This document shows, piece by piece, positions 12,332 through 64,000 of a DNA stretch of 64,000 bases (its first letter is position 1; each line of letters opens with the position of its first letter). The notes below the pieces were generated by a model. It made no database searches and was not told the DNA's origin. It saw only the letters and a list, made by a program, of their open reading frames with translations. The translations under genes were made by a program, and so were the position numbers. The stretch comes from Candidatus Latescibacterota bacterium (GTDB taxonomy: Bacteria > Krumholzibacteriota > Krumholzibacteriia > WVZY01), in assembly GCA_963791045.1 (NCBI GenBank), contig CAWBQK010000007.1, forward strand, positions 96,001 to 160,000, read 5' to 3'.

Positions 12332-12344
12332 AGAGGGGAACGAG

Positions 12345-12462
12345 GACCTTCGGGGCGGGGTGAAAGTCCCCACCGGCGGTGACAGCCCGCGAGTGGGCCG
12401 ACAGGCCTACTGATCCGGTGCAATTCCGGAGCCGACAGTTAAAGTCTGGATGGGAGAAGGTC
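12345..12462 (+). ncRNA. FMN riboswitch (RFN element)
   Basis: CTTCGGGGCGGGGTGAAAGTCCCCACCGGCGGT...AGCCCGCGAG...GATCCGGTGCAATTCCGGAGCCGACAGTTAAAGTCTGGATGGGAGAAG; P1 GACCTTC/GAAGGTC; lies upstream of ribD. Confidence 0.97.
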
Positions 12463-12649
12463 AACCCGACGGCGACGGATTCGTTGCCCGCACGGCGTGC
12501 GGGGATCGAGGCCGTGGCGGTTCCTCCCTTGGACAAACCCCGACAACCGTCCGCTTTCGTGACCCCTCTCGAACGGGAATGGATTCGTGTGTGATTCAAG
12601 TCTGAATTTCCCCGATTCGTGCCGAAGGATTTCCAACCCGGGTGACCCT

Positions 12650-13783
12650 TTGACGCAAAGCGCCGATCTTGACGAACATGCCGCCGACTCTTTCTTTCTT
12701 GATCGGGCGCTGGATGTTGCCTGGTTGGGCGCCGGCCGCGCCCATCCGAATCCGCTCGTCGGCGCGGTCGTCGTCAAGGACGGCCGGATTCTTGGCGCCG
12801 GCTGCCACGAACGGTTTGGCGGGGCGCACGCAGAGATCGCTGCGCTTGACCGCGCGGGAAACGGGGCGGAAGGCGGCACGCTCTATGTCACTCTCGAGCC
12901 GTGTTGTCACCACGGAAACACTCCGCCCTGTGTTGAGTCCATAGTGGACAAAGGTGTCCGCCGTGTTGTCATCCCGACCCTCGACCCCGATGAACGTGTC
13001 AATGGACGTGGGGTGCGGTATCTCGAGGATAACGGAATTTCGGTGGATATTGGGATCGGCCGGGACCGTGCGTTGATCCTCAATATGAAATATCTCAAGA
13101 ACAAGTTGGGTCTTGGCCCGGCTGTTACCCTGAAAATGGCCGTCACCCTCGATGGCCGAATCGCTTCGAGCCCGGGGGCTCGAGACGATATTACAGGTGT
13201 CGAGGCGAGGCGTTTGGTCCACAGGCTCCGAGCGGCGCACGACGCGGTTGCTATCGGAGTCAACACTTTCGATGTCGATTCTCCAAAACTTGATTGCCGC
13301 CTGGTGGATGGAGTGGCCGCTCCCGTGCCGGTCGTGTTTGATTCGAAATTGTCTTTTCCCAGCGCCCATCCGTGGTTGTCGGGACGCGCCGCGGTGATTG
13401 TTGCCGGCTGTGATACGCCTCCGGAAAAAGAAGAAGAAATCAAGGCGGCGGGTGGGCGTGTCTTGAAGTGCGCGATCGACGAGACCGGTGTCGATGTCGC
13501 GGACACTGTCGACGCCCTCTGTGGTTTGGGGCTGGAGAGCGTTCTTGTGGAAGGCGGGGCGAAAGTATTCGAGAGCTTTGTTCGGGCGGGCGTGTGGGAT
13601 GGGATGTTCATGTTTGTCGCGCCTTCACTCTTTGGCGCGGGTGGCGTTGCCGTTTCGAACGATCGTTTCGACAAGGCCACATTGAACGCCGAACTCGCCG
13701 GCGTGGCGACCGTTGGGGGCGACGTTCTTCTCAGCTTTATCAATAAGAATACGCAGCGCTCGCTGCTCGAAAAACTGGGATAA
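12650..13783 (+). CDS. ribD: Bifunctional deaminase/reductase RibD
   Basis: PNPLVGAV, HAE, YVTLEPCCHHGNTPPC, LKMAVTLDGRIA, VLVEGG; start uncertain (TTG 12650 preferred over GTG 12587). Confidence 0.95.
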   Translation: MTQSADLDEHAADSFFLDRALDVAWLGAGRAHPNPLVGAVVVKDGRILGAGCHERFGGAHAEIAALDRAGNGAEGGTLYVTLEPCCHHGNTPPCVESIVDKGVRRVVIPTLDPDERVNGRGVRYLEDNGISVDIGIGRDRALILNMKYLKNKLGLGPAVTLKMAVTLDGRIASSPGARDDITGVEARRLVHRLRAAHDAVAIGVNTFDVDSPKLDCRLVDGVAAPVPVVFDSKLSFPSAHPWLSGRAAVIVAGCDTPPEKEEEIKAAGGRVLKCAIDETGVDVADTVDALCGLGLESVLVEGGAKVFESFVRAGVWDGMFMFVAPSLFGAGGVAVSNDRFDKATLNAELAGVATVGGDVLLSFINKNTQRSLLEKLG

Positions 13784-13792
13784 GGAGCCGAC

Positions 13793-14395
13793 GTGTTTAC
13801 CGGGATCGTCCAGACAATCGGAAAAGTGGAGAGCCAGCGGCGCTCGGGCGAAGGCGTGTCGTTTGTTGTCTCGGGGATGGGCGCCGATATCTTGTCCGCT
13901 GGTGACAGCGTTGCGATAAACGGCGTCTGCCAGACGGTCGAGCGCCCCGGCGAGAGAGAGTTTGGTTTTACCGCAGTCGGTGAAACACTCGCGCGGACCA
14001 CGATGGAATCTCTTAAACGCGGCGCTCCGGTGAACCTCGAGACGGCCGCGACGCCACAGACGGCTCTCGGCGGCCACATCGTGCAGGGACATGTGGATGG
14101 GGTCGGGACGGTGGATTCATTTGCAAGGCGGGGCAGCGACTGGATCCTCGCCGTTCGAGTGCCTGTCGAATTGATGGCGACCGTTGTGCCGCAGGGATCC
14201 GTGACAATCGACGGGACCAGCTTGACGGTCGTCGACGCAAAACCCCGCGGTATCGTCACGATGACCATTATCCCTTTCACAAGAGATAACACGGTTGCAC
14301 GCGATTACCGATCGGGAACCCGCGTAAACGTGGAGACCGATATCCTGGGGAAATATGTCGCCCGGTATCTCGATCAAGCTCGTTACGGAAAATAG
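13793..14395 (+). CDS. ribE: Riboflavin synthase (alpha chain)
   Basis: MFTGIV, GDSVAINGVCQTV, GGHIVQGHVDG, VNVETDILGKY. Confidence 0.95.
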   Translation: MFTGIVQTIGKVESQRRSGEGVSFVVSGMGADILSAGDSVAINGVCQTVERPGEREFGFTAVGETLARTTMESLKRGAPVNLETAATPQTALGGHIVQGHVDGVGTVDSFARRGSDWILAVRVPVELMATVVPQGSVTIDGTSLTVVDAKPRGIVTMTIIPFTRDNTVARDYRSGTRVNVETDILGKYVARYLDQARYGK

Positions 14396-14441
14396 TTGGA
14401 ATGGTGATGTGACGGATGAAAATGTATCAAGAGGTGAGATC

Positions 14442-60337: not shown

Positions 60338-61988
60338 TTGTCGATTTGGAGCCGGTTGTTCCGGGTCTCTGCCGGTGACCAGTATCACAAAGGAATCCGG
60401 TACTTCAACGAAGGTGATTACGACCGCGCCATTGAATGCCTCGAAGAGGTAGTGGCCGGCGATAAAAGCCGCGAAAGCCCCATCGCGAAACTCGGCGCTT
60501 TTTATGCGGCGGAGGCGCATAGCAAGCTCGGGATTGCAGAGTTTCACCGCGAGAACTACGACAAAGCGCTGATCCATTTCAAGGCGGCGCTGCAGGTTAA
60601 CCCGCACTACCCCGACCTCTACTATTATCTCGGCGTCGTGAATCACAAACAGGGTGAACTCGACGTCGCCGTTGAGTATCTGAAAAAGGCGACCGAGCTC
60701 AACCCGGATTATGCAGAGGCGACTTGCTATCTGGGAATAGCGCTCCACGACGGTGGTTATTTCGACCGGGCCGGCAAGTGTTTTTCACACGCTCTGGAAC
60801 TTACCAGGGCGGTGCCCAACCCCCTCAGCCGGCTCCTCATGGATAAGCTCGAATCAAAATCGTTTGAGCATCCTATCCTTCAGGAACTCAAAAACGCGGC
60901 TCTTGAGAATACGAATTTCGAAGAGACCGTGAAAGAGGGTAATCGCGCGTTCAACAACCACGATTACGAGAGGGCGGCCGCGTGTTTTGCGGAGGCCTCC
61001 CACAAGAAGCCCTCCTACGCCGATCTTCACTGCAAACTCGGTTTGGCTTTTCTCGAATTGGGAAGGGATGAGGAAGCGATAGAAAGCCTCAAGCGATCGC
61101 TTCAACAGAATCCAACTTATGTCGAAGCCCTCTATTGTCTCGGAGTGACGTGCTATCAAGGAAAAGATTACGTGGCGAGTCGAGAGCACCTGGAGAGGGC
61201 AGTGGCGTTGAGGCCTGAATACGCGGATATTCACTGCCAACTCGGCATAGCGATGCTCGCGCTGGGAGAATTTGCGGCGGCGAAGGACCGAATTTGAAAA
61301 TGCCGTCGAGATTTCGCAATCTTATGCGAAGGCCCACTACATGCTCGGGATGGCTCTTCATGCGCTGGGTGACAATGATGCGGCGAATGTCGAGCTCAAG
61401 GAATCGCTTGCCCTCACGCCCGACTTGTTTCCCGCGGCAATCGATTCCGGGCTGGCGTGTCTGGGTTCTTCGGATTGGGCGGGTGCGGTGGATCGGTTCA
61501 GCAGAATCATAGACAAGAAACCCGACCAGGCGGACGCGCATTGTTTTCTGGGGATCGCTTGTCTCAACGAAGGTAATCTCGACGAAGCGGGAGAAAGGCT
61601 GTCTCGTGCATTGGAGTTGAACCCGGAGTATGTTGAGGCAAAAAAACAACTCGCGCTTGTTCACTTCAAGAAAGAACGTTACGAGGCGGCGGAACAATTG
61701 ATAAGAGAAGCCGTCGAGATTCATCCCGACTACGCGGATCTGCACAAAATTCTTGGAGACATTTGTTTGGCGCAAGATTATCTGTCACAGGCAAGGCAAG
61801 CGTACGAAGATGCGCTTGCGTCAAACCCCGATTTTTCGGACGCCGTTCTGGGTCTGGTGGTCGCTTTGCGGCGTGATGGCCGCGGAGACGCCGCCGACAC
61901 TATCCTTCGAACCTACCTCGACAGGCATCCTGCTGACCTCGCTGTGCGACTGCTCCTTGCAGACAAGCGGATGCAACTCCTTGATTGA
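60338..61988 (+). CDS. Tetratricopeptide repeat protein (frameshift near 61286)
   Basis: Repeated P.Y[AP]D.H..LG TPR units in ORFs 60338 and 61272; one extra base in AAGGACCGAA splits them; GGAGG SD. Confidence 0.85.
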
Positions 61989-62004: not shown

Positions 62005-62168
62005 AAAACACAAGGTGTGGGTGGGTGCGGGTGGTGATAACCGTCTTGTAAACAGTAAGGAAGGACTCCCAACCAGAGTATCCGAAATCACTTGGACCGA
62101 GAACACAGGAAGAGGAAACAAGTTTCGTCCCAGATAACACGGAGCCACAGCTAGTCGAGAATCCTTCC
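62005..62168 (-). ncRNA. Candidate unannotated structured small RNA
   Basis: Starts just after a consensus promoter; 18-bp closing stem 62168-62151 with 62076-62059 whose four non-Watson-Crick pairs are all G-U on the minus strand; second G-U-containing hairpin; 3' end uncertain. Confidence 0.6.
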
Positions 62169-62175
62169 ATAAATT

Positions 62176-62204
62176 AGTTTAGTTACAAAACTCTGTGCTG
62201 TCAA
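62176..62204 (-). promoter_or_regulatory. Consensus sigma70 promoter for candidate sRNA
   Basis: Minus strand TTGACA-N17-TAAACT. Confidence 0.7.
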
Positions 62205-62498: not shown

Positions 62499-64000
62499 GT
62501 GGCCGACGCTTCGAAGTTACACAGGCGATCGCTATCGCAAGAGTGCCGTTTCTTGAAGGGAGTCGGACCGGCACGCGCGGAGCGATTGAGGCGTCTTGGA
62601 ATCGAAACGCTCGATGACCTCATTACTCATTTCCCACGGAAATATTACGACCGGCGGAACTTTGCGAAGATCAGCGCTCTTGTCCCCGGGGAAGACTCCG
62701 GTTTCGTCGGGCAGATTCTTTCCGTGGCGGGACGGTCAGCCCGCGGCCGCAGGTCGGTGATTACCGCGGCGGTTGGAGACGATACGGGAATCGTCCAGGT
62801 CGTCTGGTTCAATCAGCCCTACCTCTCCAAGGTTCTCAAAGCGGGAAACGAAATTATCGTAACCGGCGAGCTCTCGCACTTAGGGGAGCGCGGCAGGTCG
62901 TTAATCCCGAGTTCGAACTGCTTGGAACCGACCTGGACCAGGAACTCCTCCACACGGGTCGTATCGTGCCCGTCTATCCGCTTACGCGCGGAGTTTCGCA
63001 ACGATACTTGAGGGAGCTGATAGCGCGCACGCTCGATGAATACAGTGCCACTGTGTTCGAGAACCTCCCTCGATCGCTCGTCGAGTCACAAAACCTTGTT
63101 CCGCGGATCGCGGCACTGCGTGCAATTCACTTCCCGGATGGTGGGGAAGCGTACGAACGGGGTGTTTTGAGGTTCAAAATCGAGGAACTGTTTTATCTTC
63201 AATTGATATTCTCACTTCAGAGGCTTGGACGGACCGACCGCCGCAAGCGCGACGCGCTCGATATCGATTTCGAACTCGAAAATCAATTTGTTGGAGCGCT
63301 CCCATTTGAACTCACCGGAGCCCAGAAAAAGGTTCTCGACGATATCCGATCCGATTTGTCCGGCGCGGAGGGAATGCACCGGCTTCTACAGGGGGATGTG
63401 GGGTGTGGCAAGACGCTCGTGGCCGCGACGACGATGCTGGCCGGAATTGAGGCGGGCAGACAAGCCGCAATGATGGTGCCGACCGAAATACTCGCCAGCC
63501 AGCATCAGAAAACACTGACGAACTTTTTTAAGGGGCTCGACATTTCCGTCGCCCTGCTGATCGGGTCGCTCCCCGCCGCTGAGAAAAGAAGGATCCACAA
63601 GGGGCTTGCGGATGGTTCCATCCCCCTCGTTGTGGGTACGCACGCTCTTATCCAGGAGGGCGTCGAGTTCGACGATCTTGGCGTTGTGATCATTGATGAA
63701 CAACACCGGTTTGGCGTGAGGCAGCGGGCGGCGCTGCTCGGGAAAAAAGGCAATCCGCACATGCTCGTAATGACCGCGACGCCGATTCCCCGGACACTGG
63801 CTCTGACGGCCTATGCCGATCTGGATCTCTCGGTGATCGACGAGATGCCGCCGGGGAGGGCTCCGGTCAAGACCCGGATCGTCGGTCCCCAGAAGCGGGA
63901 AGCGATGTATCGGTTTATCACAGAGGAGATTTCAAAGGGGTTCCAGGCCTATCTTCTCTACCCCGTGATCGACGAGACAGAGAAACAGGATCTCGAAGCC
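62499..64000 (+). CDS. recG: ATP-dependent DNA helicase RecG (frameshift near 62880; 3' partial)
   Basis: LKGVGP, HFPRKYYDR, WFNQPYL; adding one T at 62880 continues SHFRGARQVVNPEF, IVPVYP, RLLQGDVGCGKT, PTEILA.QH, IDEQHRFGV, MTATPIPRTL, open to the window end. Confidence 0.95.

Follow-up and report, generated by a model that had tools for sequence, protein, structure and literature searches.

A 64,000-nucleotide (nt) stretch of a Candidatus Latescibacterota genome (GenBank assembly GCA_963791045.1, contig CAWBQK010000007.1, positions 96001 to 160000; here called the window) carries on its minus strand the gene for a small hairpin RNA, which we call RNA-A. Among the genomes compared here, that of the window is designated G000 (81% complete), and the window itself is G000:C7:96001-160000. 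RNA-A is a real, previously undescribed non-coding RNA gene of one uncultured bacterial order. A second RNA of the same genome, RNA-B, is encoded outside the window on another contig and contains a site complementary to the RNA-A apical loop and its flank, and the flanks of the two complementary segments change together across the order. The most probable reading, to which we assign a likelihood of about 70% on comparative sequence evidence, is that stand-alone RNA-A would pair in trans through its loop with RNA-B, as one member of a pair of small RNAs (sRNAs).

A preliminary description of positions 62005 to 62204, made from the sequence without database searches, had proposed an sRNA gene with its own minus-strand promoter at this location. 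That promoter, TTGACA-N17-TAAACT (62204-62176), matches 10 of 12 consensus positions, with a -35 box at 62199 to 62204 and a -10 box at 62176 to 62181 separated by a 17-nt spacer. Promoter-like sites numbered four in the 1.2-kb region, against 0.7 expected. The promoter of the preliminary description is borne out by the homologues: TTGAC[AG]-N16-18-TAN[AG]NT occurs in all 29 of those with upstream sequence, the TTGAC[AG] and TAN[AG]NT boxes each being kept in 29/29, and the -35 box is near-invariant in a sequence alignment of the homologues (A1). The start of RNA-A is predicted at about 62168 to 62170 from promoter spacing alone.

The conserved core of RNA-A is a rod-shaped hairpin of ~113 nt at 62057 to 62169 (minus strand), as delimited by a covariance model (R1) that scores 115.4 bits at G000:C7:158057-158169; the 30 homologues make up alignment A5. 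In the minimum free energy (MFE) fold, the outer helix P1 consists of 18 uninterrupted pairs, four of them G.U, between a 5' arm GGAAGGAUUCUCGACUAG (62151 to 62168) and a 3' arm CUGGUUGGGAGUCCUUCC (62059 to 62076). Inner helices follow, and the rod is capped by a 17-nt apical loop, UUGUUUCCUCUUCCUGU (62105 to 62121), which contains the decamer CCUCUUCCUG (62115-62106), invariant in 30/30 homologues. This is the fold that had been described from the sequence. RNA starting at 62170 on the minus strand has an MFE of -52.3 kcal/mol (z = -2.83), equaled by only 1 of 200 shuffled sequences, whereas the plus strand of the same locus does not stand out (z = +0.25; a fold as good is reached by 111 of 200 shuffles). 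The covariance model likewise gives ~110 bits on the forward strand versus ~26 bits on the reverse, so the strand that had been chosen on account of the G.U pairs is the one that both comparisons favor.

Alignment of the homologues showed that both promoter boxes are kept and that conservation runs from the predicted start up to the end of the closing stem. Past that stem, alignment A1 shows no conservation. The elements reported downstream are present in the window, namely, a small 3' hairpin ACUGUUUACAAGACGGU (ACUGUUU-ACA-AGACGGU; 62040 to 62056, minus strand) and a C-rich tract followed by a CACA-CCU-UGUG-UUUU hairpin (62005 to 62036, minus strand), but they are not conserved beyond the close clade. 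Hairpins comparable to the first were confined to the four closest genomes (G000, G010, G012, and G004), and the C-rich tract and second hairpin to the window. It is possible that the small hairpin forms part of the 3' end or terminator in the clade of the window, and RNA-A of G000 may extend at its 3' end beyond the conserved ~113-nt core. Directly after the closing stem, a run of at least four T residues is present in 20 of 29 homologues and lacking in the clade of the window, which indicates that in most genomes the rod doubles as a terminator.

The distribution of RNA-A was determined at several levels of sensitivity. BLASTN with a 221-nt region matched 12/12 genomes of the same family and 4/23 of the sister family. 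A covariance model built on the fold of the preliminary description detected a single copy in 30 of the 36 genomes of the order, and in all 16 of those that are of high quality (at least 90% complete); it found no copy in 115 genomes from the seven other families of the class. A pattern scan over 185,579 species genomes returned 34 loci, of which 23 were accepted by the covariance model. Most of the accepted loci come from records titled Candidatus Krumholzibacteriia, Candidatus Latescibacterota/Latescibacteria, or "uncultured bacterium," with one titled "Chitinivibrionia" and one "beta proteobacterium." The 11 rejected loci, from actinobacteria, archaea, Treponema, and others, are consistent with the few chance matches expected for the pattern. 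It is also worth recording that RNA-A of the sister-family type lies on a 259-kb contig of G151, a 6.4-Mb bin, with recG and TPR neighbors; this record is titled "uncultured beta proteobacterium," and the bin may be mixed or mislabeled.

Covariation supports the rod. In the alignment of 30 sequences (A5), 81.4% of cells are paired versus 71.8% in shuffles, and both sides change in 24 of 39 pairs. The covariation score is 0.287 versus 0.142 for shuffled alignments (reached by 0 of 500), and sliding the partners yields no more than 0.106. Because A5 was built to fit the structure, it is biased towards it; a MAFFT alignment gave the same picture. The support sits in the outer rod, with compensation at 15/21 pairs of helix 1 and 4/4 pairs of helix 2; UCUC/GGGA in the middle of helix 1 is invariant. 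Support is weak for the apical helices (66.7% of cells paired) because CUGGGAC and UCCAAG hardly vary. In total, the near-invariant parts of RNA-A are ~35 nt of the apical domain (CUGGGAC, UUCCUCUUCCUGU, and UCCAAG) and UCUC/GGGA in the outer stem.

RNA-A was compared with known families using Rfam 15, scanned at gathering thresholds and at an E value of ≤10. The locus had no match at gathering thresholds and nothing meaningful at E ≤ 10, the best being RAGATH-5 (18.6 bits; E = 1.3). The earlier statement that this was not recognized as 6S, signal recognition particle (SRP) RNA, tRNA, or a riboswitch is thereby upheld at the level of Rfam. 6S RNA (RF00013) did not match the locus at E ≤ 10, and the true 6S RNA lies at G000:C6:15203-15379 (58.1 bits); the small SRP RNA (RF00169) likewise did not match and is found at G000:C7:60059-60159 (74.7 bits). 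Transfer-messenger RNA (tmRNA) and RNase P RNA were both found elsewhere in G000 above their Rfam cutoffs. RNA-A resembles 6S and SRP RNA in that each is a strongly structured rod with a dedicated promoter, represented once in all good genomes of the group. 6S RNA features a central bubble, and small SRP RNA features a GNRA loop and symmetric-loop motifs, none of which are present in RNA-A. Membership in a Y RNA/Ro ribonucleoprotein was rejected, as the TROVE domain (PF05731) was not found in G000 (81% complete, as noted above, which also limits the protein searches that follow) and the neighbors are recG and a TPR gene. A CsrB/RsmZ-type sponge was rejected as well, since CsrA (PF02599) was not found in G000 and RNA-A displays a single CU-rich loop in place of repeated GGA loops. 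Hfq was also looked for in this genome and not found.

RNA-B emerged from a listing of all complements of at least 10 nt to the apical region of RNA-A in G000. Its site, at G000:C5:71451-71467 (minus strand), reads CACAGGAAGAGGGAACA and lies in a stretch poor in open reading frames (ORFs) and flanked by two terminators. The RNA itself, of ~270 nt, lies on the minus strand of G000:C5, with bounds given at ~71190 and at ~71525 to 71548, and has a sigma-54-type promoter, TGGCATAATAGTTGC, and a terminator. BLASTN found RNA-B in 36/36 genomes of the order and in none of 115 genomes from the other families of the class. The invariant 21-mer of RNA-B, ATCATAGCCCTTGCCCTTAGC (also given as AUCAUAGCCCUUGCCCUUAGC), occurs exactly once, with no mismatch, in all 36 genomes of the order and not at all in 172 other genomes of the phylum. 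Upstream, TGGCAY-N5-TTGC is present in 33 of the 34 genomes with enough upstream sequence, G007 having the variant TGGAAT-N5-TTGC; at the G000 locus there was 1 match versus 0.01 expected. The gene for sigma-54, rpoN, is present in G000.

The consensus fold of RNA-B, from an alignment of 23 sequences, comprises 5' hairpins and the purine site, a long-range helix with many compensatory pairs, a GAAUCA/UGAUUC hairpin that displays an invariant loop, and the terminator. No conserved ORF was found in RNA-B: a frame that ends at a conserved UGA gives unrelated peptides, and its starts are not conserved. The stretch had no Rfam and no ARAGORN match. With these nulls and no conserved frame, identification of RNA-B as tmRNA, RNase P RNA, a riboswitch, or a small-protein gene was rejected. 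In G000, its neighbors are selB upstream, a 126-amino-acid (aa) ORF lacking Pfam matches, and an NFACT/RqcH gene in convergent orientation, and in nearly all loci the downstream gene is convergent. RNA-B is thus a second new stand-alone RNA, probably dependent on sigma-54 as judged from its promoter motif. As far as these database and literature comparisons reach, neither RNA-A nor RNA-B falls in any described family; a narrow full-text search on noncoding RNA in Krumholzibacteriota and RNA motifs in Latescibacteria found nothing.

We also noted where in G000 the invariant RNA-B hairpin has its longest complements (15 to 18 nt, counting G.U as paired). These lie at C2 ~58010 (minus strand; 18 nt, located 46 nt into a 489-codon ORF), C13 ~106219 (minus strand; 15 nt, located 78 nt upstream of a 253-codon ORF), C6 ~334171 (plus strand), and C11 ~314741 (plus strand). 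They are possible candidates for targets of RNA-B.

The evidence that carries the proposed interaction is the pairing between the two RNAs and its compensated change. In G000, the RNA-A segment UGUUUCCUCUUCCUGUG (62104 to 62120, minus strand) is complementary to RNA-B over 17 contiguous base pairs (bp), one of them G.U, and no other non-self site in the genome complements the apical region better. Pairing was then compared in the 28 genomes in which both RNAs are readable; two further RNA-B loci are cut by contig ends. All 28 show pairing of the loop and 3' flank with RNA-B, the longest ungapped run being 12 to 21 bp (median, 17). Gapped duplexes have energies of -26 to -49 kcal/mol and in some lineages extend into the 3' arm of the apical stem.

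The pairing core, UCUUCCUG/CAGGAAGA, is invariant in both RNAs, whereas the flanks change together. In one family, ...CCUGUGUUC is found with GAACACAGG..., and in the other ...CCUGUAUCCC with GGGAUACAGG.... The position two nt 3' of the decamer is paired in all 28 genomes, as G-C in 12, A-U in 15, and U-A in 1; two positions further on, there are 12 U-A, 14 C-G, 1 U.G, and 1 C.A. Lineage-specific double changes were also seen, with GUACCC facing GGGUAC in G030 and CCUGAA facing UUCGGG in G007. When RNA-A of one family was set against RNA-B of the other, the mean run was 13.7 bp versus 17.1 bp for cognate pairs. Among 504 pairing cells, 429 are Watson-Crick, 43 are G.U, and 5 are A.C, and all 43 G.U cells have the U in RNA-A and the G in RNA-B. 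This bias argues for RNA pairing on the strands predicted from the promoters rather than for a DNA motif shared by the two genes.

Interaction energies, taken as the duplex energy plus the energy of opening both sites, ranged from -10.9 to -25.0 kcal/mol (median, -17.9), and opening the pairing segment of RNA-A costs only 0.4 to 5.7 kcal/mol. RNAcofold of the full-length RNAs was discarded, as it gave no intermolecular pairs or an implausible full unfolding; it is unsuitable here because a hairpin loop that pairs while its stem is kept closed cannot be represented. In G001, G009, and G003, RNA-B carries UGGGACGAG, a copy of the 5' arm of the RNA-A apical stem, and the complementarity therefore runs ~25 to 28 nt into the 3' arm. 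This extension suggests strand invasion starting from the loop.

Taken together, these observations outline a possible course of events. RNA-A would be transcribed from its near-consensus sigma-70 promoter, and its working part would be the single-stranded CU-rich apical loop with the 3' flank. The loop would pair in trans with the purine-rich site ACAGGAAGAGG and its flanks, ~70 nt into RNA-B, opening with a kissing contact that is extended to a 12- to 21-bp duplex and, in some lineages, to ~25 to 28 bp by invasion of the apical stem. Through this duplex, one RNA may titrate, remodel, or destabilize the other, for example, by double-strand-specific cleavage. With a housekeeping promoter on one partner and an activator-dependent promoter on the other, the two would together set a threshold or act as antagonists. 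A transcription unit of its own, an accessible and conserved seed, and a conserved, compensated target site are what one looks for in a trans-acting sRNA, and in the genomes compared RNA-A has all three.

It is also important to point out the observations that weigh against pairing with RNA-B as the main role of RNA-A. In G000 alone the margin is narrow, the next-best chance sites having 16, 16, and 14 bp. The compensations are few independent events (the family split, G007, and G030) and not 28 separate cases. RNA-A is missing from 6 of the 36 genomes, all of which keep RNA-B with an intact site. These six are 80 to 88% complete, one of them with only 10 contigs, and when five (all but G034) were searched again at E ≤ 10, only chance matches were seen, one inside a coding region. 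Conversely, the G151 bin has RNA-A and no RNA-B by BLASTN. The invariant CUGGGAC, UCCAAG, and UCUC/GGGA of RNA-A are unexplained by pairing with RNA-B, and together with the 8- to 10-nt core that is invariant in both RNAs they hint at a third partner. Transcription and the transcript ends of both RNAs are deduced from promoters and terminators, and the outcome and direction of the pairing are purely inferred.

The preliminary description had assigned RNA-A a different set of partners, in that the anti-Shine-Dalgarno (SD)-like loop was thought to pair with purine-rich ribosome-binding sites (RBSs). RNA-A would then mainly regulate many mRNAs by occluding their RBSs, with RNA-B at most a decoy that relieves repression when activation through sigma-54 makes it abundant. 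The core CCUCUUCCUG is invariant in 30/30 homologues while its flanks can covary with RNA-B, which points to an additional constraint, for example, numerous targets. Moreover, pairing of the loop with SD-like AGGAGG/GGAAGAGG is possible, GGAGG-type sequences are visible in start regions of G000, and the failure to find Hfq would fit long, chaperone-independent pairing. We looked for such targets in G000 using crude longest-ORF gene calls (3,297 ORFs, 92% of the genome), which makes these tests low-powered. Nine-mers complementary to the loop lie just upstream of in-frame starts at 11 of 275 sites, which is no enrichment over the reversed motif (19 of 293) or eight permuted purine motifs (8 to 23). 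When the loop was set against 14,438 candidate start regions, the duplex energies were nondiscriminating, with 158 at or below -20 kcal/mol. A strong, seemingly intergenic 16-nt complement at G000:C6:13723 was rejected, as it lies in an aspS-like reading frame missed by the gene calls. There is thus no sign of an RBS regulon in G000, within the power of these tests, and RNA-B holds the one site for which conservation and compensation have been shown. Action in trans through the CU-rich loop survives from the earlier proposal, in that the loop is a conserved and accessible predicted interaction site; the RBSs as its targets are not supported, and the best-supported target is the purine-rich site in RNA-B. 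We consider a many-mRNA role unlikely.

A slightly less probable alternative keeps the pairing and changes its meaning. RNA-A and RNA-B could be the obligate halves of a single, bipartite functional RNA or ribonucleoprotein, order-wide and joined by the 12- to 21-bp helix in the manner of tracrRNA:crRNA or U4/U6. The invariant blocks, that is, the 21-nt loop of RNA-B and CUGGGAC, UCCAAG, and UCUC/GGGA of RNA-A, would be an active or binding surface, and sigma-54 would gate the assembly.

It is harder to defend that RNA-A works chiefly by binding protein, as a decoy or ribonucleoprotein subunit, with the apical domain and the UCUC/GGGA box as protein contacts. The near-invariance of ~35 nt of apical domain and of UCUC/GGGA exceeds what a seed would need, and a single copy in every high-quality genome is what a housekeeping RNA would show. 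However, we have no candidate protein (neither Hfq nor CsrA nor TROVE having been found in G000), repeated GGA or similar motifs are lacking, and the compensated complementarity with RNA-B would be left unexplained. This possibility is doubtful.

Two further explanations are very improbable. Parallel change of a ~16- to 20-bp sequence at two loci would also be expected of the sites of a coevolving protein, so that the shared sequence might be a DNA element, such as the operator of one regulator, in opposite orientation at both genes; against this stand the 43 G.U versus 5 A.C differences, the U being contributed by RNA-A and the G by RNA-B every time, and the position of the element, which coincides exactly with the loop capping a covarying hairpin, ~50 nt inside the RNA-A transcript and ~70 nt past the RNA-B promoter. 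Equally improbable, and by now largely refuted, is that the rod merely serves the ftsZ-TPR or recG area as a cis element, such as a large terminator that may work in both directions, or is a small-protein gene (ATG at 62170; 85 codons), for although it lies between convergent genes near the stop of the TPR gene and a T run follows the stem in 20/29 homologues, its loop is invariant, its promoter is kept in 29/29 and accompanies it to unrelated radical-SAM, XdhC, and DcuA/B neighborhoods, the ATG is not conserved (TATGG, ATTGG, TATAG, AACGG, and others), and the 85-aa frame has no Pfam match and crosses the unconserved 3' region.

The known systems closest to the proposed pair of RNA-A and RNA-B are sRNA sponges, loop-initiated antisense RNAs, and sigma-54-dependent sRNAs. 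Sponge pairs include SroC-GcvB, AgvB-GcvB, and 3'ETS-leuZ. In Bacillus subtilis, the sRNA "sponge" RosA acts on RoxS and FsrA (PMC8216469). The likeness is that stand-alone non-coding RNAs pair with another RNA, instead of mRNAs or in addition to them, with Hfq undetected and under differently regulated promoters, so that a signal acting on one partner would modulate the other. RosA and most sponges were discovered experimentally and are narrowly conserved, whereas the proposed interaction of RNA-A with RNA-B is read from coevolution across two families and 17 genera. RNA-A also differs from the sponges in having one long 12- to 21-bp site on the apical loop of a 110-nt rod and no sequence or Rfam kinship with them. 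By analogy, RNA-A and RNA-B may be a sponge pair, RNA-B being non-coding, with a sigma-54-type promoter, a terminator, and an invariant 21-nt loop.

Loop-initiated antisense RNAs include CopA/CopT, RNA I/RNA II, Sok/hok, and IstR-1/tisB. As in these, the long hairpin of RNA-A shows a single-stranded loop, the pairing would extend, and the product would be a likely substrate for a double-strand-specific RNase. Unlike them, RNA-A has its partner at a distant locus on another contig and is not cis-antisense, and in contrast to plasmid and type I systems, the genes for RNA-A and RNA-B are on the chromosome and occur as one copy each in every high-quality genome of the order. A type I toxin-antitoxin identity was rejected, as RNA-B has no conserved ORF, its peptides are unrelated between genomes, and their starts are not conserved.

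Among sigma-54-dependent sRNAs are GlmY, with the activator GlrR, and CrcZ, with CbrB. The Qrr sRNAs are sigma-54 dependent as well, under LuxO (bioRxiv 10.1101/2021.07.01.450815). RNA-B resembles these sRNAs in its -24/-12 promoter (TGGCAY-N5-TTGC), in ending at a terminator of its own, and in exposing an invariant sequence, and it differs from them in having no adjacent activator gene in G000 and no sequence similarity. To our knowledge, no sigma-54-dependent sRNA has a dedicated hairpin partner RNA.

In the window, RNA-A stands between two plus-strand genes. A TPR-repeat gene at 61272 to 61988 (Pfam) is convergent with RNA-A and ends the row of ftsA, ftsZ, and two TPR ORFs on the plus strand, so that RNA-A faces the 3' end of this row, as had been noted in describing it as convergent on the dcw 3' end. 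On the promoter side, recG (62499 to 64000; Pfam RecG_wedge and DEAD) is divergent. The usual gene order is ftsZ, TPR, RNA-A (convergent), and recG (divergent): among 15 related loci, recG is on the promoter side in 11 and the TPR gene on the 3' side in 11. Exceptions include one locus in which ftsZ abuts RNA-A, one with DcuA/B instead of recG, and three in which RNA-A is next to radical-SAM or XdhC genes. As RNA-A moves together with its promoter to other neighborhoods, it behaves as an independent gene.

Several genes appear interrupted in this assembly. In the window, recG is in two overlapping frames, 62499-63011 (wedge domain) and 62966-64000 (helicase domain), where relatives have one ORF of 655 to 812 codons, which points to a frameshift, either real or an assembly error. 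The TPR gene (60338-61988, plus strand) is likewise split into ORFs of 319 and 238 aa overlapping at 61272-61297, where most relatives have a single ORF of 553 to 585 codons; this is a second likely frameshift, near that in recG. An aspS-like frame (...RYLDLRRP...) at G000:C6 ~13600-14400 also seems interrupted, with no long ORF covering it. Together, the three interruptions suggest indel errors in the assembly. Elsewhere in the window, a flavin mononucleotide (FMN) riboswitch (RF00050) at 12342-12465 (plus strand; 115.9 bits) is the only Rfam family above its gathering score.

RNA-A and RNA-B add two RNA families that Rfam 15 does not hold, from a phylum in which nearly all the public record titles listed denote metagenome-assembled genomes, and both alignments can be used as seeds for Rfam-type families. 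It is seldom that an interaction between the RNAs of two separate non-coding genes can be read from coevolution alone, as it may be here. The pair would link a housekeeping promoter to a signal-dependent sigma-54 promoter at the level of RNA, a design that offers testable threshold or antagonist control of an inducible sRNA and is approachable in vitro without culture. If confirmed, it would be a clean model for chaperone-independent, loop-initiated pairing between sRNAs.

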